In this document: piece by piece, positions 3,058 to 55,959 of the stretch
How the letters are laid out: the number at the start of each line of letters is the position of its first letter
Numbering within the stretch: position 1 is the first letter of the stretch
Assembly (NCBI RefSeq): GCF_003334785.1
Contig: NZ_QOWV01000007.1
Strand: one strand, 5' to 3'
Source: Escherichia coli
GTDB lineage: Bacteria; Pseudomonadota; Gammaproteobacteria; Enterobacterales; Enterobacteriaceae
Length of the DNA stretch: 64,000 nucleotides
Translations under genes and position numbers: made by a program
The notes under the pieces: model-generated
The model's database searches: none
What the model saw: the letters and a program-made list of their open reading frames with translations, nothing else
Told to the model about the DNA's origin: nothing

Positions 3058-3642
3058 ATGTCTAAAAAATTAGGTTTTGCCCTGTCTGGTCTTATGCTGG
3101 CGATGGTTGCAGGTACTGCTTCTGCTGATATGGACGGCGGTCAGTTAAATATCAGTGGTCTGGTTGTTGATAACACCTGTGAAACCCGCGTTGACGGCGG
3201 TAACAAGGATGGTCTGATCCTGCTGCAAACCGCAACCGTTGGTGAAATCGATGCTGGCGTACTGAATGACACCGTTGGCGCTAAAGCTAAACCTTTCAGC
3301 ATCACCGTTGACTGCAGCAAAGCAAATCCGAATCCAGGTAGCACGGCTAAAATGACCTTCGGTTCTGTTTTCTTTGGTAACAGCAAAGGGACTTTGAACA
3401 ACGACATGTCTATTAACAACCCATCTGACGGCGTTAATATCGCTCTACACAATATTGATGGTTCCACTATCAAACAGGTTCAAATTAACAACCCTGGCGA
3501 TGTGTATACTAAAGCCCTGGATGCAACGACAAAATCTGCTGTTTATGATTTTAAAGCGTCTTACGTTCGTGCCGTCGCAGACCAAACAGCAACTGCTGGT
3601 TATGTAAAAACTAACACTGCATACACCATTACTTATCAGTAA
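3058..3642 (+). CDS. yadN: Fimbrial major subunit (chaperone-usher pilin)
   Basis: 194 aa with signal peptide, conserved Cys pair and C-terminal donor-strand-type tail TAYTITYQ; first gene of a chaperone-usher operon. Confidence 0.9.
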
Positions 3643-3739
3643 GTATTCACCAGTTAAATTGATTGAATGAATATACAGGGAATAATAATTTCTATTTTAT
3701 ATTATTCCCTGTTTTAATTAACTCTATCAGGGATGGTTT

Positions 3740-4480
3740 ATGTTTTTTAACACCAAACATACAACAGCTTTATGCTTCGTAACCTGTATGGCTTTTAGTT
3801 CATCGTCTATTGCGGACATTGTCATTTCGGGTACTCGCGTAATATATAAAAGCGATCAAAAAAGTGTCAACGTACGTCTGGAAAATAAAGGGAATAACCC
3901 GTTGCTTGTCCAGAGTTGGTTAGATACTGGCGATGACAACGCTGAGCCTGGCAGTATTACAGTCCCTTTTACTGCTACGCCGCCAGTATCGCGTATTGAT
4001 GCCAAACGTGGGCAAACAATCAAATTAATGTACACAGCCAGCACCTCACTGCCTAAAGACAGAGAGAGCGTGTTCTGGTTTAACGTACTGGAAGTTCCAC
4101 CAAAACCAGATGCAGAAAAGGTCGCGAATCAAAGCCTGCTGCAACTGGCATTTCGCACACGTATAAAACTTTTCTATCGCCCGGATGGATTGAAGGGAAA
4201 TCCCTCTGAAGCCCCGTTAGCCCTGAAGTGGTTCTGGTCAGGTTCAGAAGGTAAGGCGTCATTACGAGTGACCAATCCAACCCCTTACTACGTCTCTTTT
4301 AGCAGTGGTGATTTAGAAGCTAGCGGTAAACGCTATCCGATTGATGTGAAAATGATTGCACCATTTAGTGATGAGGTCATGAAAGTCAATGGCCTTAATG
4401 GCAAAGCGAATTCTGCAAAAGTGCATTTTTACGCCATTAATGACTTTGGTGGCGCAATTGAAGGTAATGCCAGGCTGTAA
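3740..4480 (+). CDS. yadV: Periplasmic fimbrial chaperone (PapD-like)
   Basis: 246 aa with signal peptide and PapD-family chaperone fold; sits between pilin and usher genes. Confidence 0.9.
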   Translation: MFFNTKHTTALCFVTCMAFSSSSIADIVISGTRVIYKSDQKSVNVRLENKGNNPLLVQSWLDTGDDNAEPGSITVPFTATPPVSRIDAKRGQTIKLMYTASTSLPKDRESVFWFNVLEVPPKPDAEKVANQSLLQLAFRTRIKLFYRPDGLKGNPSEAPLALKWFWSGSEGKASLRVTNPTPYYVSFSSGDLEASGKRYPIDVKMIAPFSDEVMKVNGLNGKANSAKVHFYAINDFGGAIEGNARL

Positions 4481-4514
4481 TCAGGCAAGGATATAATTCC
4501 GCAGGAAGCATAGC

Positions 4515-7112
4515 GTGACTATAGAATATACTAAAAATTATCATCATCTGACCCGTATCGCCACGTTTTGCGCGCTGCTGTATTGCAATACTGCTTTCAG
4601 TGCTGAACTCGTTGAATATGACCATACCTTCCTGATGGGGCAGAATGCATCTAATATTGATCTCAGCCGGTACAGTGAAGGTAACCCCGCTATACCGGGT
4701 GTTTACGACGTCAGTGTTTATGTAAACGACCAACCAATCATTAACCAAAGTATTACATTTGTCGCAATTGAAGGAAAAAAGAACGCCCAGGCTTGTATCA
4801 CATTAAAGAATTTATTGCAGTTTCATATTAATTCTCCCGATATAAATAACGAAAAAGCCGTTCTGCTTGCCAGGGATGAAACGCTCGGCAATTGCCTCAA
4901 TTTGACGGAAATTATCCCTCAGGCTTCTGTTCGTTATGACGTTAACGATCAACGTCTGGATATAGACGTTCCTCAAGCCTGGGTAATGAAAAATTACCAA
5001 AACTATGTTGATCCATCGTTATGGGAAAACGGCATTAATGCGGCCATGTTGTCATACAACCTCAACGGATATCATAGTGAAACCCCTGGTCGAAAAAATG
5101 AAAGCATTTATGCTGCATTTAACGGTGGGATGAATTTAGGTGCATGGCGACTGCGTGCCTCGGGCAACTACAACTGGATGACCGATTCTGGCAGTAATTA
5201 TGATTTTAAGAATCGGTATGTTCAGCGTGATATCGCCTCGCTGCGTTCTCAACTCATTCTTGGTGAGTCTTATACGACGGGCGAAACCTTTGATTCCGTC
5301 AGTATCCGAGGCATTCGTTTATACAGTGACAGCCGCATGTTGCCTCCGACTTTAGCCAGCTTTGCGCCTATCATTCATGGCGTTGCCAATACCAACGCCA
5401 AAGTCACTATTACGCAAGGTGGCTATAAGATTTATGAAACGACGGTGCCGCCAGGCGCTTTCGTCATTGATGATCTGAGTCCGTCAGGGTACGGCAGCGA
5501 TCTTATTGTTACCATCGAAGAATCCGATGGCTCAAAGCGGACATTCTCGCAACCTTTCTCATCCGTTGTTCAAATGTTACGCCCTGGCGTTGGACGTTGG
5601 GATATTAGCGGCGGTCAGGTCTTAAAAGATGATATTCAGGATGAGCCTAATTTATTTCAAGCAAGCTACTACTACGGCCTGAATAACTATCTGACGGGTT
5701 ATACCGGTATTCAGATAACCGATAATAACTATACCGCTGGTTTGTTAGGTCTTGGTCTGAATACTTCAGTTGGTGCATTTTCTTTCGATGTGACTCATTC
5801 CAATGTTCGTATCCCGGATGATAAAACATACCAGGGGCAAAGTTATCGTGTTTCCTGGAACAAGTTATTCGAAGAAACAAGTACTTCACTGAATATCGCG
5901 GCCTATCGCTATTCGACACAGAATTACCTTGGTCTTAATGATGCACTAACTCTAATTGATGAAGTGAAACATCCCGAACAAGATCTTGAACCGAAATCCA
6001 TGCGTAATTACTCACGCATGAAAAATCAGGTTACGGTCAGTATTAACCAACCGTTGAAATTTGAGAAAAAAGATTACGGTTCATTTTATCTTTCCGGAAG
6101 TTGGTCCGATTACTGGGCTTCCGGACAAAATCGTAGCAATTACTCTATTGGCTACAGTAACAGTACATCCTGGGGCAGCTACAGTGTCAGTGCCCAGCGT
6201 TCATGGAATGAAGACGGCGACACTGACGATAGCGTTTATCTTAGTTTCACCATTCCAATTGAAAAATTACTTGGCACTGAACAACGTACTTCAGGTTTCC
6301 AGAGTATTGATACTCAAATAAGCAGTGACTTTAAGGGTAATAACCAACTCAACGTTAGCAGCAGTGGCTATAGCGATAACGCTCGCGTCAGTTATAGCGT
6401 GAATACTGGCTATACGATGAATAAAGCCAGCAAAGATTTGAGTTATGTTGGGGGTTATGCCAGCTATGAGTCACCATGGGGAACGCTGGCAGGTTCAATT
6501 TCTGCAAATAGCGATAACAGCCGTCAAGTTTCTCTCAGCACCGACGGTGGTTTTGTATTGCATAGCGGTGGACTGACTTTCAGTAATGATAGTTTTAGCG
6601 ACTCCGATACACTGGCGGTAGTTCAGGCTCCAGGTGCTCAAGGAGCGCGAATAAATTATGGCAACAGTACTATCGATCGATGGGGTTATGGTGTCACCAG
6701 CGCTCTTTCTCCTTATCATGAAAACCGTATCGCGCTGGATATCAACGATCTTGAGAACGATGTTGAATTAAAAAGTACCAGTGCAGTAGCTGTACCGCGT
6801 CAGGGTTCAGTCGTCTTTGCTGATTTTGAAACCGTGCAAGGGCAATCAGCCATTATGAACATCACACGAAGTGATGGTAAAAATATTCCATTTGCTGCAG
6901 ATATTTATGATGAGCAAGGCAATGTCATTGGTAATGTTGGACAGGGTGGACAAGCATTTGTTCGTGGTATTGAGCAGCAGGGAAATATCAGCATTAAATG
7001 GCTCGAACAAAGTAAACCCGTAAGTTGTCTTGCGCATTATCAACAAAGCCCAGAAGCAGAAAAAATAGCACAATCTATTATTCTGAATGGAATTCGGTGT
7101 CAGATTCAGTAA
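4515..7112 (+). CDS. htrE: Outer-membrane fimbrial usher
   Basis: 865-aa ORF with apparent GTG start; usher-family length and composition. Confidence 0.9.
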   Translation: MTIEYTKNYHHLTRIATFCALLYCNTAFSAELVEYDHTFLMGQNASNIDLSRYSEGNPAIPGVYDVSVYVNDQPIINQSITFVAIEGKKNAQACITLKNLLQFHINSPDINNEKAVLLARDETLGNCLNLTEIIPQASVRYDVNDQRLDIDVPQAWVMKNYQNYVDPSLWENGINAAMLSYNLNGYHSETPGRKNESIYAAFNGGMNLGAWRLRASGNYNWMTDSGSNYDFKNRYVQRDIASLRSQLILGESYTTGETFDSVSIRGIRLYSDSRMLPPTLASFAPIIHGVANTNAKVTITQGGYKIYETTVPPGAFVIDDLSPSGYGSDLIVTIEESDGSKRTFSQPFSSVVQMLRPGVGRWDISGGQVLKDDIQDEPNLFQASYYYGLNNYLTGYTGIQITDNNYTAGLLGLGLNTSVGAFSFDVTHSNVRIPDDKTYQGQSYRVSWNKLFEETSTSLNIAAYRYSTQNYLGLNDALTLIDEVKHPEQDLEPKSMRNYSRMKNQVTVSINQPLKFEKKDYGSFYLSGSWSDYWASGQNRSNYSIGYSNSTSWGSYSVSAQRSWNEDGDTDDSVYLSFTIPIEKLLGTEQRTSGFQSIDTQISSDFKGNNQLNVSSSGYSDNARVSYSVNTGYTMNKASKDLSYVGGYASYESPWGTLAGSISANSDNSRQVSLSTDGGFVLHSGGLTFSNDSFSDSDTLAVVQAPGAQGARINYGNSTIDRWGYGVTSALSPYHENRIALDINDLENDVELKSTSAVAVPRQGSVVFADFETVQGQSAIMNITRSDGKNIPFAADIYDEQGNVIGNVGQGGQAFVRGIEQQGNISIKWLEQSKPVSCLAHYQQSPEAEKIAQSIILNGIRCQIQ

Positions 7113-7128
7113 CTACAAGGGACGTCAA

Positions 7129-7698
7129 ATGATAAAAACAACGCCACATAAAATAGTGATACTGATGGGAATATTATTATCACCCTCAGTATTTGCAACG
7201 GATATTAATGTAGAGTTTACAGCCACTGTCAAAGCGACAACCTGTAACATCACACTTACTGGTAATAACGTCACGAATGATGGCAATAATAACTACACAT
7301 TGAGAATCCCTAAGATGGGTCTGGATAAGATCGCGAATAAAACGACAGAATCTCAGGCTGATTTTAAACTGGTTGCCAGTGGGTGCAGCAGTGGCATCAG
7401 TTGGATTGATACCACTCTGACCGGAAATGCATCATCAAGCTCACCTAAGCTTATTATACCGCAGTCTGGTGATTCATCTTCGACGACAAGTAATATCGGT
7501 ATGGGTTTCAAAAAACGGACTACTGATGATGCCACTTTCCTTAAACCTAACAGTGCGGAAAAGATACGCTGGAGCACAGACGAGATGCAGCCCGATAAGG
7601 GTCTTGAAATGACCGTTGCGCTACGTGAAACAGATGCAGGGCAAGGCGTACCGGGGAATTTTCGTGCACTGGCGACGTTTAATTTCATCTATCAATAA
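7129..7698 (+). CDS. yadM: Fimbrial-like minor subunit
   Basis: ORF track 7087..7698 trimmed to ATG at 7129 (MIKTTPHK..., signal peptide); C-terminal TFNFIYQ pilin tail. Confidence 0.85.
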   Translation: MIKTTPHKIVILMGILLSPSVFATDINVEFTATVKATTCNITLTGNNVTNDGNNNYTLRIPKMGLDKIANKTTESQADFKLVASGCSSGISWIDTTLTGNASSSSPKLIIPQSGDSSSTTSNIGMGFKKRTTDDATFLKPNSAEKIRWSTDEMQPDKGLEMTVALRETDAGQGVPGNFRALATFNFIYQ

Positions 7699-7709
7699 GA
7701 AGGATAATT

Positions 7710-8315
7710 ATGATGACATTTAAAAATTTACGTTATGGATTATCCAGCAGTGTCGTTTTGGCTGCCTCATTGTTCAGCGTACTCTCTTATGCGGCAACAG
7801 ACAGTATTGGACTGACCGTTATTACTACTGTAGAAATGGGTACTTGTACCGCTACATTAGTAAATGACTCTGATCAGGACATTTCTGTTGTTGATTTTGG
7901 TGATGTATATATTTCTGAAATCAATGCCAAGACCAAAGTAAAAACATTCAAACTCAAATTCAAAGACTGTGCGGGTATCCCCAATAAAAAAGCGCAAATA
8001 AAATTAACCAAGCGAGCCACATGCGAGGGAACTGCTAATGACGGTGCGGGGTTTGCAAATGGTTCCACAGCCGCAGATAAAGCAAGTGCTGTCGCCGTTG
8101 AAGTCTGGAGCACTGTAACTCCGGCAACAGGGAGTGCAACACAATTTAGCTGTGTAACACCAGCATCACAAGAGGTAACAATCTCCACTGCAGCCAATGC
8201 GGTCGTTTATTATCCGATGAGTGCACGCCTGGTCGTGGAAAAAAATAAAACCGTAAACAATGTCACTGCGGGTAAGTTTTCTGCACCAGCCACATTTACA
8301 GTAACCTATAACTAA
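7710..8315 (+). CDS. yadL: Fimbrial-like minor subunit
   Basis: 201 aa, signal peptide, C-terminal TFTVTYN pilin tail. Confidence 0.85.
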   Translation: MMTFKNLRYGLSSSVVLAASLFSVLSYAATDSIGLTVITTVEMGTCTATLVNDSDQDISVVDFGDVYISEINAKTKVKTFKLKFKDCAGIPNKKAQIKLTKRATCEGTANDGAGFANGSTAADKASAVAVEVWSTVTPATGSATQFSCVTPASQEVTISTAANAVVYYPMSARLVVEKNKTVNNVTAGKFSAPATFTVTYN

Positions 8316-8341
8316 CAGACTTACAGATTCAGGAACTATAT

Positions 8342-8938
8342 ATGCATCCCACTCAACGTAAGCTGATGAAGAGAATAATTCTGTTTCTGTCATTACTGTT
8401 TTGCATCGCCTGTCCAGCCATTGCTGGACAGGATATTGACCTTGTTGCCAATGTAAAAAACAGCACCTGCAAAAGCGGAATCAGTAACCAGGGTAATATT
8501 GATCTTGGCGTCGTTGGGGTGGGATATTTTTCAGGTAATGTTACTCCTGAAAGTTATCAACCAGGTGGAAAAGAGTTCACTATCACTGTATCCGACTGTG
8601 CATTACAGGGAACTGGCGATGTGCTAAATCAGTTACATATTGATTTTAGAGCCCTTAGCGGTGTCATGGCTGCTGGCTCTAGGCAAATATTTGCTAATGA
8701 AATTTCGTCAGGAGCAAGTAATGTAGGAGTAGTTATATTTTCTACTCAGGATTCGGCGAATACATTCAATGTTCTTAATGCTTCAGGCGGATCTCGTTCC
8801 GTTTATCCAGTAATGTCGGATGACATGAATGGTTCATCCTGGAAATTTAGCACCCGAATGCAAAAAATCGATCCTGCATTGAGTGTTACATCTGGTCAAC
8901 TTATGAGCCATGTGTTAGTGGATATTTACTACGAATAA
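8342..8938 (+). CDS. yadK: Fimbrial-like minor subunit
   Basis: 198 aa, signal peptide, pilin-like C-terminus. Confidence 0.85.
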   Translation: MHPTQRKLMKRIILFLSLLFCIACPAIAGQDIDLVANVKNSTCKSGISNQGNIDLGVVGVGYFSGNVTPESYQPGGKEFTITVSDCALQGTGDVLNQLHIDFRALSGVMAAGSRQIFANEISSGASNVGVVIFSTQDSANTFNVLNASGGSRSVYPVMSDDMNGSSWKFSTRMQKIDPALSVTSGQLMSHVLVDIYYE

Positions 8939-8987
8939 CAAACAAAAACAGCGCAAACCATAACAATAAAGAAACATTGGAGTAAAA

Positions 8988-10226
8988 ATGAAGACTATCT
9001 TCAGGTACATTCTTTTTTTAGCACTGTATTCTTGTTGTAATACAGTCAGTGCATATACAAGTTTTATTGTGGGAAATAATGCAGGAGTTGATAACTATCG
9101 AGGCCCCTCCACTGCCGCACAGATGACCTTTAATTACACATCAACAGCAAGCAACTTGGTTTTTTATAAACCCACGCAGCTCGGCCCGACTGGGGTAAAA
9201 ATGTACTGGTCATACCTGGATACAGGTACCGGTGGTGGTATTCTTTACTGCAATACATCTGGCAGAGCGAATCCTGGTCCAATAACTATTGAAAATGCCA
9301 TGGTCTATTCAGGTAAAGATTATGGCGGACATAAACTATTTAATACATCTGTTCCTGGTCTGTATTACACCATGTTAATATCAAGGGTCTGGTCTGCATA
9401 CGATACAATAACTGACATTCAATCGCCAGGAATCTATATCGGAGATCCTTCCAACCAAGAATTTTTCTTTTCCGTCACAGACAGCGATCTACAAACTAAG
9501 GGTTGCAACAAAGCAGACGACTACGATAAGTTTTGGGCTATTGGTGGTATAGTACACAACATAACTGTTGAATTTTATACAGATACTAATTTCGATCCTA
9601 CACTTAATCAGCAAGTCCAGTTATCCAGTTCATCAAATTACCTTTATTCGTTTAAGGCCTACAGTCCTGGTACAAAAGTTGTAGATCACAGCAACCACAT
9701 TTATGTCAATTTCACACTGAATAATGTCAAATTAACCTTACCAACATGTTTTACCTCCATACTTACCGGGCCATCAGTCAATGGTTCAACGGTTAGAATG
9801 GGAGAATATAGCTCTGGGACAATTAAAAATGGCGCTTCACCTGTTCCCTTTGATATCTCGCTTCAGAATTGTATTCGTGTGCGTAATATTGAAACAAAAC
9901 TCGTCACTGGAAAAGTAGGTACTCAAAACACACAACTGCTTGGTAATACGCTTACTGGAAGCACTGCCGCCAAAGGCGTTGGCGTACTCATTGAAGGTTT
10001 AGCAACCAGTAAAAATCCGCTAATGACATTAAAACCTAATGATACGAATTCTGTTTATATAGATTATGAAACCGAAGATGACACCTCCGATGGGGTTTAC
10101 CCTAATCAAGGTAACGGCACATCACAGCCTCTTCATTTCCAGGCAACATTAAAGCAAGACGGGAATATTGCTATCGAACCCGGCGAATTTAAAGCCACCA
10201 GTACTTTCCAGGTAACCTATCCCTGA
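8988..10226 (+). CDS. yadC: Putative fimbrial tip adhesin (two-domain pilin-like protein)
   Basis: 412 aa, signal peptide, C-terminal TFQVTYP pilin tail with a long N-terminal extension typical of tip adhesins. Confidence 0.85.
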
Positions 10227-36924: not shown

Positions 36925-37084
36925 GGGTTATTCCTTATCTATCTAATAACGTTGAGTTTTCTGGAACCTGTCCCATTGAACTCTCGCCGGAAAGCTCAAT
37001 AAGACAGGTTCTACGTTTAGTTGCCGCGCTTTTATATGCGCTTGATTTACAACATCTTCTGGATAATTTTTACCAGAAAAATCA

Positions 37085-41235: not shown

Positions 41236-42189
<954 letters not shown>

Positions 42190-42391
42190 TAGTTGACAGA
42201 TTTATCCGCTCCATCGCGGGCGGATAATCTCCCCTTCCCCAACTTTCTTCGTAACGCCTCGCAAATTTCTTGTCTTTCGCTGCAACGAAATAAAAAACCT
42301 CGGAATCTGCTTTCCCGTTTCGTTTTTTGCCCCTCGCCTGTGCTGATGGCGTTTGCCAAAGTAGCGCCAACCAAATCAAGGAGCGAAACAG

Positions 42392-42832
42392 ATGGACAAG
42401 CAACGCGGTTTTACACTTATCGAACTGATGGTGGTTATTGGCATCATTGCCATTTTAAGCGCCATTGGTATTCCCGCTTATCAAAACTACCTGCGCAAAG
42501 CCGCACTCACCGACATGCTACAAACCTTTGTGCCTTACCGTACCGCCGTAGAGTTGTGCGCGCTGGAACATGGTGGATTAGATACCTGCGACGGTGGCAG
42601 CAATGGCATTCCCTCGCCTACCACCACCCGCTATGTTTCAGCCATGAGTGTGGCAAAGGGCGTGGTGTCGCTGACCGGGCAAGAAAGTCTCAATGGGCTA
42701 AGCGTCGTCATGACACCGGGTTGGGATAACGCAAACGGCGTCACCGGCTGGACGCGCAACTGCAATATTCAAAGTGACAGCGCATTGCAGCAAGCCTGCG
42801 AAGATGTCTTCCGCTTTGATGACGCCAACTAA
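42392..42832 (+). CDS. ppdD: Type IV prepilin (major pilin-like)
   Basis: 146 aa; N-terminal prepilin motif MDKQRG/FTLIELMVVIGII with the conserved E at +5. Confidence 0.93.
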   Translation: MDKQRGFTLIELMVVIGIIAILSAIGIPAYQNYLRKAALTDMLQTFVPYRTAVELCALEHGGLDTCDGGSNGIPSPTTTRYVSAMSVAKGVVSLTGQESLNGLSVVMTPGWDNANGVTGWTRNCNIQSDSALQQACEDVFRFDDAN

Positions 42833-42841
42833 GGAGCGGCA

Positions 42842-44227
42842 ATGAATATTCCACAGCTCACTGCCCTGTGTCTGCGTTATCATGGAGTCTTGCTGGATGC
42901 CAGCGAAGAGGTGGTTCATGTTGCGGTAGTCGATGCACCTTCGCATGAGCTACTGGACGCATTGCATTTCGCTACCACCAAACGTATTGAGATCACCTGC
43001 TGGACGCGCCAACAAATGGAAGGTCACGCCAGTCGCACACAACAGACATTGCCCGTAGCTGTTCAGGAGAAGCATCAGCCCAAAGCAGAGTTGCTAACTC
43101 GAACGTTACAATCTGCGCTGGAACAACGCGCGTCTGATATTCATATCGAACCAGCGGACAATGCCTACCGCATCCGCTTGCGTATCGACGGCGTATTGCA
43201 TCCTTTACCGGATGTTTCACCGGATGCCGGAGTCGCATTAACCGCCAGATTAAAAGTGCTGGGAAACCTGGATATTGCGGAACATCGCCTGCCGCAGGAC
43301 GGGCAATTCACTGTCGAACTGGCAGGAAACGCCGTCTCATTTCGTATTGCGACCTTACCATGTCGGGGTGGTGAAAAGGTGGTATTAAGGTTGTTACAGC
43401 AGGTGGGTCAGGCACTGGATGTCAACACGCTTGGAATGCAGCCGTTACAACTGGCGGACTTTGCTCATGCCTTGCAACAACCACAGGGACTGGTGCTGGT
43501 AACTGGCCCTACCGGCAGCGGCAAAACGGTCACGCTTTATAGTGCCCTGCAAAAGCTGAATACCGCTGACATTAATATTTGTAGCGTCGAAGATCCAGTT
43601 GAGATCCCCATAGCCGGACTAAACCAGACGCAAATCCATCCGCGTGCCGGACTCACCTTTCAGGGCGTTTTGCGTGCGTTATTGCGCCAGGATCCTGACG
43701 TCATCATGATCGGAGAGATCCGCGATGGCGAAACAGCAGAGATCGCTATTAAAGCGGCGCAAACTGGTCACCTGGTGTTGTCTACCCTACACACTAATTC
43801 CACCTGCGAAACGCTGGTACGTTTACAGCAAATGGGGGTCGCCCGCTGGATGCTATCATCGGCGCTTACGCTGGTAATAGCCCAGCGTCTGGTACGCAAA
43901 CTTTGCCCACATTGTCGCCGGCAGCAAGGGGAGCCCATCCACATTCCAGACAATGTATGGCCATCGCCGCTGCCCCACTGGCAGGCACCCGGTTGTGTAC
44001 ATTGCTACCACGGTTTTTATGGTCGTACGGCCTTATTTGAAGTTCTGCCCATAACGCCGGTCATTCGTCAGCTTATTTCCGCTAATACCGACGTTGAATC
44101 GCTGGAAACGCACGCACGACAGGCGGGTATGCGTACGCTTTTTGAAAACGGCTGCCTGGCCGTAGAGCAAGGCTTAACCACCTTTGAAGAGTTAATCCGC
44201 GTACTGGGGATGCCGCATGGCGAGTAA
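42842..44227 (+). CDS. hofB: Type IV pilus/type II secretion family assembly ATPase (PilB/GspE-like)
   Basis: 461 aa; Walker A GPTGSGKT and C-terminal tetracysteine CPHC...CVHC. Confidence 0.93.
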   Translation: MNIPQLTALCLRYHGVLLDASEEVVHVAVVDAPSHELLDALHFATTKRIEITCWTRQQMEGHASRTQQTLPVAVQEKHQPKAELLTRTLQSALEQRASDIHIEPADNAYRIRLRIDGVLHPLPDVSPDAGVALTARLKVLGNLDIAEHRLPQDGQFTVELAGNAVSFRIATLPCRGGEKVVLRLLQQVGQALDVNTLGMQPLQLADFAHALQQPQGLVLVTGPTGSGKTVTLYSALQKLNTADINICSVEDPVEIPIAGLNQTQIHPRAGLTFQGVLRALLRQDPDVIMIGEIRDGETAEIAIKAAQTGHLVLSTLHTNSTCETLVRLQQMGVARWMLSSALTLVIAQRLVRKLCPHCRRQQGEPIHIPDNVWPSPLPHWQAPGCVHCYHGFYGRTALFEVLPITPVIRQLISANTDVESLETHARQAGMRTLFENGCLAVEQGLTTFEELIRVLGMPHGE

Positions 44228-45419
44228 GCAACTCTGGCGCTGGCATGGCATAACCGGCGACGGCAATGCGCAAGATGGGATGCTATGGGCAGAGAGCCGT
44301 ACTTTACTGCTTATGGCACTACAGCAACAGATGGTTACCCCACTAAGCCTGAAGCGAATCGCCATCAATTCTGCGCAGTGGCGAGGAGATAAAAGCGCGG
44401 AAGTCATTCATCAACTGGCGACGCTACTCAAAGCAGGGTTAACGCTTTCTGAAGGGCTGGCTCTGCTGGCGGAACAGCATCCCAGTAAGCAATGGCAAGC
44501 GTTGCTGCAATCGCTGGCGCACGATCTCGAACAGGGCATTGCTTTTTCCAATGCCTTATTACCCTGGTCAGAGGTATTTCCGCCGCTCTATCAGGCGATG
44601 ATCCGCACGGGTGAACTGACCGGTAAGCTGGATGAATGCTGCTTTGAACTGGCGCGTCAGCAAAAAGCCCAGCGTCAGTTGACCGACAAAGTGAAATCAG
44701 CGTTACGTTATCCCATCATCATTTTAGCGATGGCAATCATGGTGGTTGTGGCAATGCTGCATTTTGTTCTGCCGGAGTTTGCCGCTATCTATAAGACCTT
44801 CAACACCCCACTACCGGCACTAACGCAGGGGATCATGACGCTGGCAGACTTTAGTGGCGAATGGAGCTGGCTGCTGGTGTTGTTCGGCTTTCTGCTGGCG
44901 ATAGCCAATAAGTTGCTGATGCGCCGACCGACCTGGCTTATAGTGCGGCAGAAATTGCTGTTACGCATCCCGATTATGGGTTCACTGATGCGGGGACAAA
45001 AACTCACGCAGATCTTTACGATTCTGGCGCTGACACAAAGTGCAGGCATTACTTTTTTACAGGGCGTAGAGAGCGTCAGAGAAACAATGCGCTGCCCGTA
45101 CTGGGTGCAACTTCTGACACAAATCCAGCACGATATCAGTAACGGTCAACCCATCTGGCTGGCGCTAAAAAATACCGGTGAGTTTAGCCCGCTCTGTTTG
45201 CAATTAGTGAGAACAGGAGAGGCATCCGGCTCTCTGGATCTCATGTTAGACAACCTCGCCCATCATCATCGGGAAAACACAATGGCGCTGGCGGATAACC
45301 TCGCAGCCTTACTGGAACCGGCGTTGCTGATCATAACGGGAGGAATTATTGGTACGCTGGTGGTGGCAATGTATCTGCCAATTTTCCATTTAGGCGATGC
45401 GATGAGTGGGATGGGATAA
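44217..45419 (+). CDS. hofC: Type IV pilus inner-membrane platform protein (PilC/GspF-like)
   Basis: 400 aa; overlaps hofB by 11 nt. Confidence 0.93.
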   Translation: MASKQLWRWHGITGDGNAQDGMLWAESRTLLLMALQQQMVTPLSLKRIAINSAQWRGDKSAEVIHQLATLLKAGLTLSEGLALLAEQHPSKQWQALLQSLAHDLEQGIAFSNALLPWSEVFPPLYQAMIRTGELTGKLDECCFELARQQKAQRQLTDKVKSALRYPIIILAMAIMVVVAMLHFVLPEFAAIYKTFNTPLPALTQGIMTLADFSGEWSWLLVLFGFLLAIANKLLMRRPTWLIVRQKLLLRIPIMGSLMRGQKLTQIFTILALTQSAGITFLQGVESVRETMRCPYWVQLLTQIQHDISNGQPIWLALKNTGEFSPLCLQLVRTGEASGSLDLMLDNLAHHHRENTMALADNLAALLEPALLIITGGIIGTLVVAMYLPIFHLGDAMSGMG

Positions 45420-45453
45420 CGCTGGCGTGTTGCTCCACGCCAGCGTTGGGAGA

Positions 45454-46497
45454 TTACAGGTTGTTGAAGATGCGGTTTTCTTGTTCCTGCACACGAATAA
45501 ACGTGGTGCGCTTGGTCAGCTCTTTCAGGCGTGAAGCCCCAACGTATGTACAAGCTGAACGCAGGCCGCCCAAAATATCTCGCGCGGTATTTTCAACCGG
45601 GCCTCGCAGCGGCAGCTTAACGGTTTTACCTTCTGCTGCGCGATATTCCGCAACGCCGCCAACGTGACGTTTCATCGCAGACTCGGAGCTCATGCCGTAG
45701 AACAGCATAAATTTCTCGCCGTTCTCCTCAACGATGCGACCGCCGCTCTCTTCGTGGCCCGCCAGCATGCCGCCAAGCATGACGAAATCGGCACCGCCGC
45801 CAAAGGCTTTCGCCACATCGCCCGGCGTGGTGCAGCCACCATCGCTGACGATCATTCCGCCCAGACCGTGCGCAGCATCGGCACATTCGATTACCGCAGA
45901 AAGTTGCGGATAACCGACGCCTGTTTTGACGCGAGTTGTACAAACAGAACCTGGGCCAATGCCAACTTTAACGATATCGGCACCTGAGAGGATAAGCTCC
46001 TCACACATTTCACCAGTCACTACGTTACCAGCACAAATGGTTTTGGTCGGCCACGCTTCACGCGCTTTCGCAACGAACTGCACGAAGTGTTCGGAATAAC
46101 CATTCGCCACGTCAATACAAACGAAGTTTAATGCCGGGTTCAGGTCGAGAATCTGTTTAGTTTTTTCGAAATCCGCATCAGACGTACCGGTAGAAACCAT
46201 CACATGTTTCAGCACATCAGCGGAAGAATTGTTGATAAACGCTTGCCACTCTTCGACAGAATAGTGTTTATGCACAGCAGTCAAAATATCAAAAGAAGCC
46301 AGCGCAGAGGCCATAGAAAATGTGCCTACGGTGTCCATATTTGCGGCGATAATCGGCACGCCGGACCAGCTCTGACCTGAATGTTTGAAGGTGAATTGAC
46401 GTTCCAGTTCAACATCGGAACGGCTTTTAAGAGTGGAGCGTTTAGGGCGGATGAGAACGTCTTTAAAACCTAACTTCAGATCTTCTTCAATACGCAT
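45454..46497 (-). CDS. guaC: GMP reductase
   Basis: 347 aa; IMPDH/GMPR catalytic loop [11 protein letters not shown]. Confidence 0.95.
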
Positions 46498-46721
46498 GTG
46501 CGGATTCCTGGGGTTAATGGCTATAAGGGTAAGAGCGCAACTCCAGTGACGCTATCATACGCACTAATCAATGCGGCGCAAGACTGCGAAATTGTCTTTT
46601 TTTACGCTACAATCCCATAAATTTACCTGGTAAATAGTGAGCGAACGTTTCATCAATTTCGCTTTCGTGCACTCATTTTTAACGTTTTGATAATCATGAT
46701 GAATTCCCGGGAATATAAATT

Positions 46722-47342
46722 ATGAGGTATATAGTTGCCTTAACGGGAGGCATTGGCAGTGGCAAGAGTACCGTTGCCAATGCGTTTGCTGATCTCGGAA
46801 TTAACGTCATTGATGCCGATATTATTGCGCGTCAGGTGGTTGAACCAGGTGCACCTGCGCTACATGCCATTGCTGATCACTTTGGCGCTAACATGATTGC
46901 TGCTGATGGAACATTGCAGCGCCGGGCCTTGCGCGAGCGGATCTTCGCCAACCCGGAAGAGAAAAACTGGCTTAACGCCCTGCTGCATCCGCTGATTCAG
47001 CAAGAGACGCAACACCAGATCCAGCAAGCTACTTCCCCCTATGTACTGTGGGTTGTGCCATTGCTGGTAGAAAACTCACTGTATAAAAAAGCGAATCGAG
47101 TGCTTGTGGTGGATGTCAGCCCAGAAACGCAACTTAAGCGCACCATGCAGCGCGATGATGTAACTCGCGAGCATGTCGAACAAATCCTTGCTGCTCAGGC
47201 AACGCGCGAAGCCCGCCTTGCCGTGGCAGATGACGTCATTGATAATAACGGCGCACCGGATGCTATCGCATCGGATGTTGCCCGCCTGCACGCACACTAT
47301 TTGCAGCTTGCGTCGCAGTTTGTCTCACAGGAAAAACCGTAA
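46722..47342 (+). CDS. coaE: Dephospho-CoA kinase
   Basis: 206 aa; P-loop GGIGSGKST. Confidence 0.95.
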
Positions 47343-48304: not shown

Positions 48305-48507
<203 letters not shown>

Positions 48508-48512
<5 letters not shown>

Positions 48513-48897: not shown

Positions 48898-48918
48898 TGT
48901 CTTAAACCTATAAAAAAG

Positions 48919-48936
48919 GCGCAGAATCCTGCGCCT
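48919..48936 (-). terminator. Hairpin with flanking U/A runs between secA and mutT
   Basis: aaaaaa-ggcgca-gaatcc-tgcgcc-tttt read directly. Confidence 0.55.
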
Positions 48937-48956
48937 TTTACTTCAACAGTTAGCTT

Positions 48957-51662
48957 TTATTGCAGGCGGCCATGGCACTGCTTGTATTTTTTACCAGAAC
49001 CGCACGGGCAAGGATCGTTACGTCCTACTTTGCGCTCTCCGGTTTGCGCCGCCAGTGCAGCTGCGGCTGCAGAGTCGTCATCCTGATGGCTAAGCTGCTG
49101 CATTTGCGCTAAACGCTCGGCTTCCATACGACGCTGTTGTTCCAGCTCCTCAACCTCTTCAGGCATACGTACCTGAACTTTGCTCAGCGTACTGATAACT
49201 TCATATTTCAACGACTCCAGCATCGCTGCAAACATGGAGAACGATTCACGTTTGTATTCCTGCTTCGGATCTTTCTGTGCGTAGCCACGCAGGTGGATAC
49301 CCTGACGCAGATAGTCCATCGCTGCCAGGTGCTCTTTCCACAGGGAGTCAAGCGTTTGCAGCATGACGCCTTTCTCGAAGTGACGCATCATCTCAGCACC
49401 AACCACTTCTTCTTTACGCTGATACACTTCGATGGACTGCGCCAGAATGCGCTCACGCAGCGTCTCTTCATGCAGTTCTGGTTCTTTATCCAGCCACTCG
49501 GCAATTGGCAAATCGAGGTCGAAATCGTTCTTCAGACGTTCCTGCAGCCCCGGAATATCCCACATTTCTTCCAGCGACTGTGGTGGAATGTAGGCATCAA
49601 TGGTCGCTTTGAACACATCTTCACGAATGCTGTTAATGGTTTCGCTCACATCGCTGACATCCAACAGTTCGTTACGCTGGGAGTAAATGGCGCGACGCTG
49701 ATCGTTAGCCACGTCATCATATTCCAGCAGTTGCTTACGAATGTCGAAGTTACGGCTTTCAACTTTACGCTGGGCGTTGGCAATCGCTTTAGTCACCCAC
49801 GGGTGTTCAATGGCTTCGCCTGGCTTCATACCCAGTTTACGCATCATGCCGGATACTCGGTCGGAAGCAAAAATACGCATCAGCGCATCTTCCATCGACA
49901 GGTAGAAACGGGAAGAACCAGCATCCCCCTGACGACCAGAACGACCGCGCAACTGGTTATCGATACGACGGGATTCGTGACGCTCGGTACCGATGATATG
50001 CAGGCCACCTGCTTCCAGTACCGCATCGTGACGTACCTGCCAGTCGGCTTTAATTTTTTCAATTTGCTCTGCGGTCGGATTTTCCAGCGCGGCAACTTCT
50101 GCCTGCCAGCTACCACCGAGCACAATATCTGTACCACGACCCGCCATATTGGTCGCGATAGTCACCGCAGCCGGATAACCTGCCTGAGCAACAATCGCCG
50201 CTTCGTTGGCGTGGAATTTGGCGTTCAGGACGTTGTGCTTAATACCGGCTTTGGTCAGTTCGTTTGACACCAGCTCCGATTTTTCGATGGAGATAGTACC
50301 CACCAGCACCGGCTGGCCTTTCGCAGTACGTTCTTTGATATCTTCAATGATCGCCTGAATTTTTTCCGCTTCAGTCATGTAGACCAGGTCCGGCAGATCT
50401 TTACGAATCATTGGACGGTTGGTCGGAACAACGACGGTATCCAGCTTGTAGATTGAGCTAAATTCGAAAGCTTCGGTATCAGCAGTACCGGTCATCCCCG
50501 CCAGTTTTTCATACAGACGGAAGTAGTTCTGGAAGGTGATCGAAGCCAGCGTTTGGTTTTCGTTCTGGATCTGCACACCTTCTTTCGCTTCCACAGCCTG
50601 GTGCAGACCATCGGACCAGCGACGGCCCTGCATGGTACGACCGGTGTGTTCGTCAACGATGATAACTTCACCATCTTTAACGATGTAGTCGACGTCACGG
50701 GTAAACAGCGCATGAGCGCGCAGCGCCGCCGTTACGTGGTGCATCAGCATGATGTTGGCCGGAGAGTACAGAGACTCCCCTTCATCCATGATGCCCTCTT
50801 TCACCAGCAGTTCTTCAATCAGCACCAGACCACGTTCGGTCAGGTTCACCTGGCGAGATTTTTCGTCCACCGAGAAGTGGCCTTCGCCCTGGAAGGTTTC
50901 GGAGTCTTCTTTTTCCTGACGGATCAGGTGCGGAATAATTTTATTCACGCGTTTATACATTTCCGAGCTGTCTTCTGCCGGGCCGGAAATGATCAGCGGT
51001 GTACGCGCTTCATCGATCAGGATGGAGTCCACTTCGTCCACCAGCGCATAGTGCAGTTTACGCTGTACACGTTCTTCAGGGCTGAACGCCATGTTGTCGC
51101 GCAGGTAGTCAAAGCCGTATTCGTTGTTCGTACCGTAAGTGATGTCAGCTGCGTAAGCTTCGCGCTTTGCCGGTGCTGGCATGCCCGGCAGGTTGATACC
51201 GACAGTCAGGCCAAGGAATTCAAACAGCGGACGGTTGTTTTCGGCGTCACGTTGCGCCAGGTAGTCGTTGACGGTAACTACGTGCACGCCTTTACCGGTT
51301 AGTGCGTTCAGGTAAGCAGGCAGCGTTGCGGTCAGGGTTTTTCCTTCACCGGTACGCATTTCGGCGATGCAGCGTTCGTTAAGAACCATACCGCCGAGTA
51401 ACTGAACGTCGAAGTGACGCATACCAAAGACGCGCTTACTTGCCTCACGTACCACGGCGAAAGCTTCCGGGATCAGATTTTCCAGCACTTCGCCTTTTTC
51501 CAGACGTGCACGAAACTCTGCGGTTTTCCCTTTCAGTTCTTCGTCGGAGAGTTTTTCCATCTCCGGTTCCATGGCATTGATGATGTTGACCACTTTGCGC
51601 ATCCGGCGCAGGGTGCGATCGTTACGACTACCGAAAACTTTAGTTAACAATTTGATTAGCAT
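48957..51662 (-). CDS. secA: Preprotein translocase ATPase SecA
   Basis: 901 aa; C-terminal zinc-binding [14 protein letters not shown]. Confidence 0.97.
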
Positions 51663-53484: not shown

Positions 53485-54636
53485 TTAATCAGCTTGCTTA
53501 CGCAGGAATGCTGGGATATCCAGATAATCCGGCTCTTTCGCAGTTTGCGGCGCATTGTCATTCACGACTTTAGCAACCGGCTTCTGCTCCTGGGTCAGCG
53601 GAGCCATCCCATGCTGCTGGTAGCGATCCATCACTGGCTGCTGAACCTGCTTATTGGTCACCAGAGTGATTTCAGGACGTTTGTCCATGCCGATACCTGT
53701 CGCAACAACGGTTACGCGCAGCTCGTCATTCATATCCGGGTCAAGAGAAGTACCGATAACCACAGTCGCGTTGTCGGAAGCAAATGCACGGATGGTGTTA
53801 CCTACCGTTTCGAACTCATCCAGACGCAGGTCGAAGCCCGCCGTGATGTTAACCAGCACGCCGCGCGCGCCAGACAGGTCGATATCTTCCAGCAGCGGAG
53901 AAGAGATAGCCATTTCAGCAGCTTCTTCCGCACGGTCTTCACCGCTCGCCACGCCAGAACCCATCATTGCGTAGCCCATCTCAGACATTACGGTGCGTAC
54001 GTCTGCAAAGTCCACGTTCATCAAACCCGGACGAGTAATCAGTTCAGCGATACCTTGCACAGCGCCTTTCAGTACATCGTTCGCTGCGCCAAACGCATCC
54101 AGCAGGGAGATACCGCGGCCCAGAACTTTCAGCAGTTTGTCGTTCGGGATAGTGATCAGAGAGTCCACATGCTTGGACAGTTCAGTGATCCCCTGCTCCG
54201 CGAATGCCATACGCTTCTTGCCTTCAAAGTTGAAAGGCTTAGTGACGACAGCAACGGTCAGGATACCCAAATCTTTTGCCACTTCAGCGACGACTGGTGC
54301 TGCACCTGTACCGGTACCACCACCCATACCCGCAGCAATAAAGACCATGTCTGCACCTTCCAGCGCCGCACGCAATGCATCGCGATCCTCATCAGCCGCA
54401 TTGCGGCCAACTTCTGGATTAGCGCCAGCGCCCAGTCCTTTGGTGATACCGCTACCGATTTGAATCGTCTGTCCAACCGCTGTTTTACGCAGCGCTTGTG
54501 CATCGGTATTTACCGCGAAGAATTCAACACCTTCAATGCGCTCGCGCACCATGTGTTCAACAGCATTACCGCCGCCGCCGCCGACGCCGATGACTTTAAT
54601 CACCGCGTCATTGGTAAGTTCCATTGGTTCAAACAT
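53485..54636 (-). CDS. ftsZ: Cell division GTPase FtsZ
   Basis: 383 aa; tubulin signature GGGTGTG. Confidence 0.98.
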
Positions 54637-54696
54637 AGTTTCTCTCCGATTTGTGCCTGTCGCCTGAGGCCGTAATCATCGTCGGCCTCATAAAAA

Positions 54697-55959
54697 TTAA
54701 AACTCTTTTCGCAGCCAACTATTGAGTCGCTTGATCCACGAGCCAACTGATGCTGTAACACGTTTTTCTACTTCAGCTTCACCGTTAAGATGTGACTCTT
54801 TCCCATAGTGAAGCAATCCCACCGCCGTCGAATAATACGGCTCCTGAGCATAATCCGTTAAACCGGTAATGTTCAGCGGCGCGCCGATACGCACTTGCGT
54901 ATGAAACACGCGCTGAGCACAGGCTGCAAGACCTTCGATCTGCGCTGCGCCACCGGTTAATACAATGCCTGCCGCCAGGTGATGTTTAACCCCTTGTTGG
55001 CGAAGCTTTTCCTGCAACTGCAATATCTCTTCGTTGACCAGGTTGAGCAGCTCGGTATAGCGCGGCTCGATCACCTCTGCCAGTGTCTGACGTTGCAGAC
55101 TCCGTGGCGGACGACCACCTACGCTCGGCACTTCCACGCTCTCATCTTTTCCAACGATGGAACCCAGCGCACAACCGTGGCGAACTTTAATCGCTTCGGC
55201 GTCGCTTGGCGGCGTGCCAAAGGCGTAAGCGATATCACTGGTCACGACATTGCCAGCATAAGGAATTACCTTAGTGTGGCGCAATGCCCCACCGGTATAA
55301 ACGGCGATATCCATTGTACCACCACCGATATCGACGACGCAGACACCCAGTTCACGTTCATCTTCCGTCAATACCGAATAACTTGATGCCAGTCCGGCAA
55401 ATATCAGTTGGTCAACTTTCAGCCCACAACGTTCAACCGCTTTGACGATGTTTTTCGCCATATCGTTGTGACATGTGATCAGGTGCACTTTTGCCTGCAT
55501 CCGCACGCCCGAAAGTCCTACCGGATTCTTGATCCCTTCCTGATAGTCAATCGCATACTCTTGCGGGATCACATGCAGCACACGATGCTCATCGCGCACA
55601 CGCACCGATTTCGCGGTATGGACGACGTTTTCCACATCTTCTTGCGTCACTTCTTCTTCAGAAATAGGCACCATACCAATTTCATTCTGGCAGCTGATGT
55701 GCTTACCAGAAAGCGCCAGATATACCGAAGAGATCTGACAATCTGCCATCAATTCTGCCTGGTCAATGGCGCGTTGTACGCACTTGACCACGGATTCGAG
55801 GTCGTTCACCCCGCCTTTATCCATACCACGCGACGGGCAGCTGCCCACGCCAATGATATTGACCATACCGTCGGGCAGAACTTCCCCTACTAAAGCGGCA
55901 ACCTTCGCGGTACCAATCTCCAGTCCTACTACCAGTTTTCTGTCCGTCGCCTTGATCAT
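54697..55959 (-). CDS. ftsA: Cell division protein FtsA (actin-like ATPase)
   Basis: 420 aa; 4-nt overlap with ftsQ. Confidence 0.97.

Follow-up and report, generated by a model that had tools for sequence, protein, structure and literature searches.

The three-gene module studied here is, we are confident, the ppdD-hofB-hofC operon of Escherichia coli K-12, the orthologue of pilA-pilB-pilC in other gammaproteobacteria, and it probably works by the mechanism outlined below. It belongs to the cryptic type IV pilus and DNA-uptake machinery of E. coli and bears on natural competence in this species, on colonisation by EHEC and UPEC, and on the engineered production of pili or nanowires. An earlier note on this DNA was correct in both its observation and its interpretation, but it restates textbook knowledge of K-12 and its content is already known. 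No bacterial genome has been studied more than this one and all of this is in the literature already, so flagging the locus adds nothing new. The modest additions that we can offer are an Enterobacterales-wide break in synteny, with guaC standing in for pilD, that explains the missing peptidase, a positionally conserved CRP-S site and evidence that the genes are maintained by selection.

In the mechanism we favour, the three genes would form one tightly coupled transcription unit behind a weak, activator-dependent promoter, and transcription would need cAMP-CRP on a low-affinity CRP-S site together with the competence regulator Sxy (TfoX). Sxy is scarcely made in the laboratory, and the operon is therefore silent. 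On induction, an unlinked A24 peptidase (probably GspO and/or PppA in vivo, both encoded in type II secretion system (T2SS) clusters) would cleave the prepilin. HofB and HofC would then polymerise the pilin with the aid of the HofMNOP alignment proteins, the HofQ secretin and the minor pilins PpdA, PpdB, YgdB and PpdC. The product would be the pilus that mediates DNA uptake at a low level in K-12 and, under the name HCP, adhesion in EHEC.

Identity and geometry of the three genes

Throughout, 'the window' is the entire 64,000-nucleotide stretch of DNA that was analysed. It is K-12 MG1655 DNA: the MG1655 assembly NZ_CP032667.1 differs from it at 3 of the 64,000 bases, none of them in the module, and over 42100-45500, the region of the module, identity to MG1655 is 100%. 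The locus is core genome: all but one of the 5426 complete E. coli genomes (5425) carry it. According to the open reading frame listing, all three genes are intact and each runs from an ATG start to a TAA stop (Table 1). Only 9 bp (GGAGCGGCA), which include the hofB Shine-Dalgarno sequence, separate ppdD from hofB, and hofC is translationally coupled to hofB through an 11-bp overlap (ATGGCGAGTAA). The outer coordinates of the module, the gap, the overlap and the intact FTLIE motif that the earlier note had listed are exact to the base when compared with this listing and the sequence.

Table 1. Features of the module, its flanks and its unlinked partners. Positions are those of the window, except where the MG1655 record is named.
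Feature	Position	Strand	Description
nadC-ppdD intergenic region	42190..42391	+	Activator-dependent promoter and 5' leader
Candidate CRP site	42245..42266	.	CRP-S type (Sxy-dependent), TTCTTCGTAACGCCTCGCAAAT; core 42248-42263
ppdD	42392-42832	+	Major type IVa prepilin; 146 aa; 6-aa leader, mature 140 aa, 4 Cys
hofB	42842-44227	+	PilB/GspE-family assembly ATPase; 461 aa; N-terminus shortened relative to PilB
hofC	44217-45419	+	PilC/GspF-family inner-membrane platform protein; 400 aa
Hairpin	45418..45447	.	13-bp perfect, in the 34-bp gap of convergent hofC and guaC
guaC	45454..46497	-	GMP reductase, inverted; position held by pilD (prepilin peptidase) in outgroups
hofMNOPQ	360623-363909		Same genome (MG1655 record), unlinked
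ppdA-ppdB-ygdB-ppdC	919198-920934		Same genome (MG1655 record), unlinked
gspO	417155-417832		Same genome (MG1655 record), unlinked
pppA	769023-769832		Same genome (MG1655 record), unlinked
yggR	788295-789275		PilT/PilU family; same genome (MG1655 record), unlinked

The translation of ppdD begins MDKQRG/FTLIELMVV (the slash marks the end of the six-residue leader), with Gly-1, Phe+1 and Glu+5. A short leader ending in glycine and followed by a hydrophobic N-terminal helix, here MDKQRG/FTLIELMVVIGIIAIL, is what is expected of a class III signal peptide. PpdD scores 35.9 bits against TIGR02532 (cut-off 16.3) and 269 bits against the PpdD equivalog NF007862 (cut-off 138). Moreover, its residues 7-146 match the full 140 residues of chain A in the 14-chain pilus filament of PDB entry 6GV9 (E 3e-91), identifying it as a filament subunit, and residues 31-146 match 6GMS (E 1e-75).

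HofB carries a T2SSE domain (PF00437, Pfam E 1e-146), and its translation contains the Walker A motif GPTGSGKT, the Walker B motif DPDVIMIGEIRD, the His box TGHLVLSTLHTN and a CPHC...CVHC tetracysteine arrangement. It reaches 823 bits against NF007755 (cut-off 617), and it is an N-terminally shortened variant of PilB. Its score against the PilB model TIGR02538 is 485.8, below the cut-off of 675.65 for a full-length PilB, and the alignment to that model begins only at position 160 of 564. The annotation pipeline PGAP labels hofB 'type II secretion system protein GspE' ('gspE'). HofC scores 661 bits against NF007861 (cut-off 401), and PF00482 is recorded on its homologues, as expected of a PilC/GspF-family platform protein. 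With each of the three proteins above the cut-off of its curated equivalog (NF007862, NF007755, NF007861), the locus is the pilin, assembly ATPase and platform core of a type IV pilus; these profile scores and the 6GV9 match uphold the same reading in the earlier note.

Unlinked partners and the gene order around the module

The closest known system, the PpdD (HcpA)-HofB-HofC type IVa pilus of K-12 and EHEC ('hemorrhagic coli pilus', 6GV9, 6GMS), is the same locus, with gene order, unlinked partners and Sxy/CRP-S regulation as published and no difference of substance. The earlier note had claimed that partner genes are absent from these 64 kb and that the module relies on unlinked ones, and both points are borne out. 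No peptidase, secretin, alignment or retraction gene appears in the annotation of the matching 64-kb MG1655 stretch. Likewise, tblastn searches of the window with GspO, PppA, HofM/N/O/P/Q, YggR and the orthologous PilD of Utexia gave nothing below E = 0.1, apart from a match of YggR to HofB that is expected paralogy. The secretin, PilMNOP-like alignment proteins, minor pilins, peptidase and PilT-like ATPase are all encoded elsewhere in the same genome (Table 1).

Positional orthologues of the module are found in the pilABCD loci of Utexia brackfieldae (L014) and Salinivibrio (L018). The order pilin-ATPase-platform is the same as in E. coli, with ampD/nadC upstream and coaE-zapD-yacG, then mutT and secA, downstream. 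PpdD shares 50% identity with the pilin of Utexia, which passes the PpdD equivalog, and the Utexia PilB and PilC are 49% and 33.5% identical to their E. coli counterparts. The Salinivibrio PilB has 560 aa and a full MshEN domain, whereas HofB, with 461 aa, shows only a weak and partial MshEN match (Pfam E 3e-5). We take the pilABCD clusters of V. cholerae and H. influenzae, and pilA/pilBCD-coaE of P. aeruginosa, to be of the same kind.

The difference lies downstream of the platform gene. In eight Enterobacterales loci (the record of one locus is cut off) an opposite-strand, IMPDH-family guaC lies between hofC and coaE, whereas in Utexia (Orbales) and Salinivibrio (Vibrionaceae) this slot holds an A24 peptidase gene on the same strand as pilC, giving the order pilin-pilB-pilC-pilD-coaE-zapD-yacG in Orbaceae and Vibrionaceae. 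By annotation and tblastn, the window lacks a linked A24 peptidase and guaC fills the slot; no pilD remnant was detected by tblastn between hofC and coaE. The three-gene architecture itself persists down to 35% HofC identity. The incompleteness of the module is an Enterobacterales-wide trait, and we infer from the two outgroup loci that pilD was lost from this site and that the inverted guaC came in its place, an order and timing of events that those two loci suggest. The outgroups were obtained by an exhaustive search of representatives, the word-indexed protein search having listed only relatives of at least 60% identity. Two other loci, L012 (Hafnia-like) and L016, are on contigs that end at or just past the platform gene. 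L017 was rejected as an orthologous locus; it is a type IV pilus cluster of another kind, in which pilC is followed by a ComP_DUS pilin.

The short gap between the convergent hofC and guaC genes holds a hairpin (CGCTGGCGTG-ttgctc-CACGCCAGCG) without a U-tract, whose fold energy is -28.5 kcal/mol (z = -3.2 relative to shuffles). This hairpin is likely a bidirectional transcript end. A terminator scan gave only chance-level matches and missed it, there being no T-run. Elsewhere in the window are an unrelated chaperone-usher fimbrial operon (3058-10226) and a gene for the pilotin-like YacC (23024-23371). We do not link yacC to the pilus because the GspS-beta pilotin has no tblastn similarity to YacC at E <= 1.

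Activation of the promoter region

The region upstream of ppdD has the character of a Sxy/TfoX regulon promoter, with a CRP-S-like site and no canonical sigma-70 promoter found. Specifically, the sigma-70 consensus scan found none in 41900-46800, where shuffled sequences lead one to expect 3.9, and we take this result only as consistent with activator dependence. Transcription presumably starts within the intergenic region. The core of the candidate site departs from TGCGA-N6-TCGCA at two positions and keeps the C6/G17 hallmark. The window has no excess of matches to this core (29 against 43 expected), and a single match is not above chance. The same simple scan did not recover the published sites of hofM (yrfD), nor did it show a site between thyA and ppdA, upstream of the latter. 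Taken alone, the core is too degenerate a motif in E. coli, and we relied instead on positional conservation. Exactly one CRP-S-like site is present in 8 of 9 orthologous intergenic regions of Enterobacterales, where the chance per region is 0.04-0.11, and in seven of the nine loci its distance to the pilin start downstream is 132-142 nt. The Pectobacterium site is 183 nt upstream, although the called start may differ. In addition, the primer sequences place the EMSA fragment of Cameron & Redfield 2006 (PMC1635313) at 42178-42309, and CRP binding to this fragment, which contains the candidate site, was weak but specific. The CRP-S assignment thus draws on the conserved position of the site and on the published EMSA rather than on motif score.

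In an alignment of four genera, conservation begins at the CRP-S-like site and runs in blocks up to the Shine-Dalgarno sequence. These blocks (~42267-42385) might be one more regulatory element of the leader, not described so far, though we think this unlikely. When the entire window was scanned with Rfam, no RNA family was found in or beside the module.

Published experiments establish how the operon is activated. Sxy (TfoX) with cAMP-CRP induces ppdD 90-fold by qPCR, and induction is abolished in a crp mutant and in a cyaA mutant without cAMP (PMC1635313), requirements that were confirmed again in PMC3330819 and bioRxiv 10.1101/284836. Sxy/CRP-S regulation is common to the pilABCD family (PMC1635313). 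The earlier note described the module as normally silent, which agrees with the failure to detect PpdD in K-12 and in all 72 ECOR strains (PMC3330819) and with the failed earlier attempts to detect the ppdD transcript (PMC1635313). It also called the activating signal incompletely defined. This does not apply to the proximate activator, which is known to be Sxy with cAMP-CRP (PMC1635313), but it does apply to the natural cue of sxy (PMC3330819).

Alternative readings and the natural role of the pilus

It seems appropriate to ask whether a module that is silent and lacks its peptidase gene is still a functional pilus locus. One could regard it as what is left of pilABCD after the loss of pilD, an orphan in decay that has ceased to matter for fitness. 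Its lack of expression under any laboratory condition and in 72 ECOR strains, the departure of pilD from the locus, the shortened HofB, the occasional IS insertion (H1) and E. coli variants in which HofB-HofC is fused or truncated (P0004, P0105, P0107) could all be cited for this. So could the dN of hofB and hofC, which is about 3-fold higher than that of the flanking genes, and this faster evolution is compatible with partly relaxed constraint. However, Escherichia, Salmonella, Citrobacter and Enterobacter all keep the three reading frames intact, and dN/dS is 0.04 for ppdD, 0.09 for hofB and 0.11-0.14 for hofC. Purifying selection of this strength, far below neutrality, means that the genes are not decaying. 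The near-universal presence of the locus in E. coli, its stable architecture in distant relatives and the conserved regulatory site argue in the same direction, and published work has demonstrated both pilus assembly and DNA uptake. The dN/dS values well below 1 and the functional reconstitution largely refute decay, which we reject as very improbable.

Even less credible is the proposal that HofB and HofC are type II secretion components serving protein secretion, with PpdD as a pseudopilin. The GspE name given to hofB by PGAP invites it, the T2SS components are homologous to type IV pilus parts and their models match below threshold, and a study in EMBO J 2000 used the Pul secreton as the machinery. 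The ATPase, platform and (pseudo)pilin families of the E. coli gspC-O T2SS are indeed homologous to HofB, HofC and PpdD, and its GspO peptidase also processes PpdD in published reconstitutions (bioRxiv 10.1101/856302). Yet all three proteins fall short of the T2SS equivalog cut-offs: HofB scores 457.6 against GspE model TIGR02533 (630.25), HofC 263.7 against GspF model TIGR02120 (424) and PpdD 29.1 against GspG model TIGR01710 (88.85). The genome also has a separate, complete gspC-O cluster, whose product is a periplasmic pseudopilus, whereas PpdD forms a surface pilus. The synteny with pilABCD of Vibrionaceae and Orbaceae and the 6GV9 structure, a true type IV pilus of PpdD, complete the case for rejecting a secretion function and for keeping the type IV pilus assignment.

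What the pilus does in nature is a distinct question. Forced expression of sxy yields processed PpdD pilin, and Sxy-induced transformation and DNA uptake depend on hofQ, but uptake by K-12 is barely detectable even then (PMC3330819), and in nature the pilus may therefore serve mainly for something other than DNA uptake. For pilus assembly, hofBC, hofMNOPQ, ppdAB-ygdB-ppdC and gspO have been combined in a synthetic operon (bioRxiv 10.1101/856302). EHEC also assembles PpdD pili, and EHEC ppdD-hofBC in a K-12 strain brought PpdD pilin to the cell surface (PMC2649431). The principal role might accordingly be host adhesion and colonisation, as the EHEC 'hemorrhagic coli pilus' and UPEC kidney persistence suggest, and its place in the competence regulon would then be a habit of regulation that it inherited; this view concerns the role only and leaves gene identity as it is. 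On minimal casein medium, EHEC produces PpdD pili, and these mediate adherence, invasion and hemagglutination (PMC2920817, PMC2649431). In mouse kidney, hofQ mutants of UPEC show poor persistence (PMC2649431), and K-12 uptake is close to the detection limit (PMC3330819). On the other hand, the competence regulator Sxy with CRP is the only defined inducer in the published work considered, and hofQ is needed for Sxy-induced transformation. The CRP-S-like site is kept across commensal, plant-associated and environmental Enterobacterales, and the locus is core genome rather than pathotype-specific. We therefore regard adhesion as a possible but doubtful principal role.

A further idea, which we consider unlikely though less so than decay or a secretion function, is that several peculiarities of the locus have a common origin. 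The displacement of pilD by guaC, the loss of about 100 N-terminal residues of HofB (most of the MshEN-type domain) and the 3-fold faster evolution of HofB and HofC relative to the pilin and flanks might be one linked re-wiring event in Enterobacterales that made the pilus dependent on a peptidase from a T2SS cluster. The T2SS clusters concerned are silenced by H-NS. If this idea is true, piliation would need two independent permissions, Sxy/CRP and T2SS-cluster expression, and the crypticity of the pilus would be explained.

Core operon and its unlinked partners

The three genes form the known PpdD/HofB/HofC type IVa pilus core operon of E. coli, and this operon belongs to the Sxy/CRP-S competence regulon. 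The coordinates given in the earlier note are exact by the six-frame ORF list and direct reading of the sequence, and the latter confirms both the 9-bp gap between ppdD and hofB (GGAGCGGCA), which belongs to an AAGGAG Shine-Dalgarno sequence, and the 11-bp overlap between hofB and hofC (ATGGCGAGTAA). The cleavage motif is likewise intact, and the PpdD N-terminus (MDKQRG/FTLIELMVV) is a textbook class III signal peptide. All three proteins pass the NCBIfam equivalog cut-offs for PpdD, HofB (PRK10436) and HofC; an identity as type II secretion components was rejected, given that all three fail the GspG, GspE and GspF equivalogs. HofB carries a T2SSE domain (E 1e-146), a weak and partial MshEN match and, as read from its translation, Walker A, Walker B, His box and tetracysteine motifs. 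PpdD residues 7-146 align with the whole subunit of the solved EHEC pilus structure 6GV9; for PDB 6GMS the match covers residues 31-146.

The absence of partner genes from the window also held up. The annotation of the 64 kb includes no A24 peptidase, secretin, PilMNOP-like or PilT-like protein; tblastn of GspO, PppA, HofM, HofN, HofO, HofP, HofQ and YggR against the window returned only the expected YggR-HofB paralogy, and an orthologous PilD query had no match there. The proposed dependence on unlinked partners is correct, as all of them reside in the same chromosome, 1.2-1.8 Mb away. The second T2SS cluster is partly degraded, and therefore one of the two candidate PpdD peptidases, PppA, is encoded in a decayed cluster. 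In K-12 the gspL of this cluster is annotated as a pseudogene (MG1655 record 771273-772247; 16274-17248 in L006, the retrieved piece with pppA), and the only cluster remnants near pppA are gspS2, gspC and yghD. The observation and interpretation of the earlier note are right, although their content is established knowledge. The follow-ups it suggested have largely been carried out already, namely induction assays of the reporter type, forced expression of the genes, and their expression together with hofMNOPQ and a peptidase.

Genes of the pilus system and other features of the window
Feature	Position	Strand	Description
yadN-yadV-htrE-yadMLKC	3058-10226	+	complete chaperone-usher fimbrial operon
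yacC	23024-23371	+	'YacC family pilotin-like protein'; NF037975, 197 bits
tp2	36927-37040	+	upstream of aceE; Rfam
ppdD	42392-42832		146 aa; co-directional with hofB, hofC; six-frame ORF list
hofB	42842-44227		461 aa; co-directional with ppdD, hofC; six-frame ORF list
hofC	44217-45419		400 aa; co-directional with ppdD, hofB; six-frame ORF list
naRNA4, two copies	48315-48392, 48432-48508	-	between yacG and mutT; Rfam
STnc40	48912-48981	-	between mutT and secA; Rfam
'PssrA' match	54628-54717	-	spans ftsA-ftsZ junction; Rfam
hofMNOPQ	same chromosome, unlinked
ppdA-ppdB-ygdB-ppdC	same chromosome, unlinked		adjoins recC
gspO	same chromosome, unlinked		end of gspC-O cluster
pppA	same chromosome, unlinked		second, partly degraded T2SS cluster
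yggR	same chromosome, unlinked		PilT/PilU-family ATPase

The pilD position in related lineages

Compared with a generic pilABCD cluster, the E. coli module has no linked pilD and its PilB counterpart, HofB, is shortened; both departures are common to Enterobacterales. A synteny account of this incompleteness is new in the present analysis. The deposited annotation reads ampE-ampD-nadC-ppdD-'gspE'(hofB)-hofC-guaC(-)-yacM-coaE-zapD-yacG-mutT-secA. Orthologous loci were found through HofC homologues and the contigs encoding them, and seven Enterobacterales loci were read besides E. coli. Six of these (Salmonella bongori, Citrobacter freundii, Enterobacter, Pectobacterium-like, Biostraticola-like and one further lineage), extending to HofC identity as low as 35%, have nadC-pilin-ATPase-platform and then an inverted IMPDH-family guaC, with coaE-zapD-yacG wherever the contig runs past guaC (five loci). 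In the seventh, a Buttiauxella-like locus, the contig stops partway through the next gene downstream, which is inverted and for which no Pfam entry is recorded.

Utexia brackfieldae (Orbales) and Salinivibrio (Vibrionaceae) carry at the guaC position a co-directional gene with A24_N_bact and Peptidase_A24 domains, followed by coaE-zapD-yacG in both; Salinivibrio also has nadC upstream and mutT-secA downstream. The Utexia flanking proteins are 47-52% identical to their E. coli counterparts, and its pilin is 50% identical to PpdD and passes the PpdD equivalog. Given these shared flanks and the pilin similarity, pilABC and ppdD-hofB-hofC are positional orthologues, with guaC taking the pilD slot in Enterobacterales. 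Parsimony, with two outgroups only, suggests that the polarity is one of pilD loss. The nadC-pilABCD-coaE arrangement is presumably also that of V. cholerae and P. aeruginosa.

Promoter region and induced expression

A scan across 41900-46800 returned no sigma-70 consensus promoter (3.9 expected by shuffling), which fits an activator-dependent promoter for the ppdD operon. The CRP band-shift fragment of Cameron & Redfield (2006), placed by its primers, is 42178-42309 (PMC1635313), and the only CRP-S-like sequence inside it is TTCTTCGTAACGCCTCGCAAAT (42245-42266), with a perfect TCGCA right half-site and the diagnostic C6 kept in the left half. Across the window the motif match alone is no better than chance, and the assignment is therefore based on conservation. 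In a four-genus alignment, conservation within the otherwise unalignable intergenic region starts precisely at this site. When the whole intergenic region was scanned in eleven loci, allowing at most two mismatches, eight of nine Enterobacterales regions had exactly one match, for a chance of 0.04-0.11 per region. In seven loci the distance from the match to the pilin ATG downstream is 132-142 nt, and in Pectobacterium, where the called start may differ, it is 183 nt; more divergent lineages have better sites, such as TGCGG-N6-TCGCA in Hafnia.

Downstream, at 42267-42385, blocks including TTGTCT, CTGCAAC, CGGAATCnGCnTTCCCGTTT, TTTTTTG..CTCGCC and TTTGCCAAAGTAGCGCCA are conserved in Escherichia, Salmonella, Citrobacter and Enterobacter (and partly visible in a second alignment), the remaining intergenic region having diverged. 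One long block sits just upstream of the ppdD Shine-Dalgarno sequence. Among these blocks must lie the -35 and -10 elements and the start of transcription.

CRP binding at the ppdD fragment is weak but specific, and Sxy induces ppdD 90-fold with absolute dependence on CRP and cAMP (PMC1635313), as later reconfirmed (PMC3330819; bioRxiv 10.1101/284836). The description of the module as normally silent agrees with the absence of PpdD under standard conditions in K-12 and all 72 ECOR strains (PMC3330819). Forced sxy expression yields processed 15-kDa pilin, and therefore an unlinked peptidase acts; transformation is then low and hofQ-dependent, with lambda Red supplying recombination (PMC3330819). 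EHEC produces PpdD pili ('HCP') in minimal casein medium, and PpdD pilin reaches the surface of a K-12 strain when EHEC ppdD-hofBC is expressed there (PMC2649431; PMC2920817). A synthetic operon of hofBC, hofMNOPQ, ppdAB-ygdB-ppdC and gspO has been built for pilus assembly in E. coli (bioRxiv 10.1101/856302). PMC3330819 describes the natural sxy inducer as still undefined.

At the operon end, a perfect 13-bp hairpin (45418-45447; -28.5 kcal/mol, z = -3.2) nearly fills the 34-bp hofC-guaC gap and has no U-tract on either strand. It probably forms the ends of both convergent transcripts, hofC and guaC. The terminator scan missed it.

Selection, variation and neighbouring features

With a G+C of 0.52-0.535, the three pilus genes differ little from the neighbouring genes and from the window as a whole (0.51), and thus show no sign of recent acquisition. 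A decaying module was rejected: in Escherichia, Salmonella, Citrobacter and Enterobacter alike none of the three ORFs is broken, and dN/dS against S. bongori is low (ppdD 0.04, hofB 0.09, hofC 0.135; flanking housekeeping genes 0.03-0.06). PpdD is 90% identical to its S. bongori counterpart, conserved like its neighbours, whereas HofB and HofC are 68-70% identical (neighbours 86-95%) and have a dN of about 0.22, about three times that of the neighbours (0.04-0.08 for PpdD and flanking genes). E. fergusonii HofC is 75% identical to that of E. coli, and the HofB N-terminus is ~100 residues shorter than in the Vibrionaceae orthologue. It seems improbable that pilD loss, HofB shortening and faster HofB/HofC evolution were one re-wiring event tying piliation to a T2SS-encoded peptidase, with a further regulatory element hidden in the leader blocks.

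Of 5426 complete E. coli genomes, 5425 carry the region 42100-45500, and in 5424 one place alone accounts for 80% or more of the query; K-12 MG1655 and several other strains match the region at 100% identity. The whole window has three base differences from MG1655 (NZ_CP032667.1), at 33749, 39854 and 57846, none in the module; by coordinates they sit in aceF, ampE and murC. Occasional natural disruptions are HofB-HofC fusions, HofC truncation and a transposase. Protein records P0004, P0105, P0109 and P0107 from E. coli are fusions of 596-674 aa or have truncated HofC; in the fusions one ORF encodes the MshEN, T2SSE and T2SSF domains together. In strain 74-2, an IS903B-family transposase is annotated inside the matched ppdD-hofC region.

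An Rfam scan of the window gave five matches above gathering thresholds (see the table). The yad operon belongs to another class of pili and has no relation to ppdD-hofBC. No tblastn similarity of YacC to GspS-beta and no link to HofQ were found; the PulS/OutS score of YacC is 38.5, under the cut-off of 75. YacC is related to secretin pilotins, and 19 kb separate its gene from those of the pilus.
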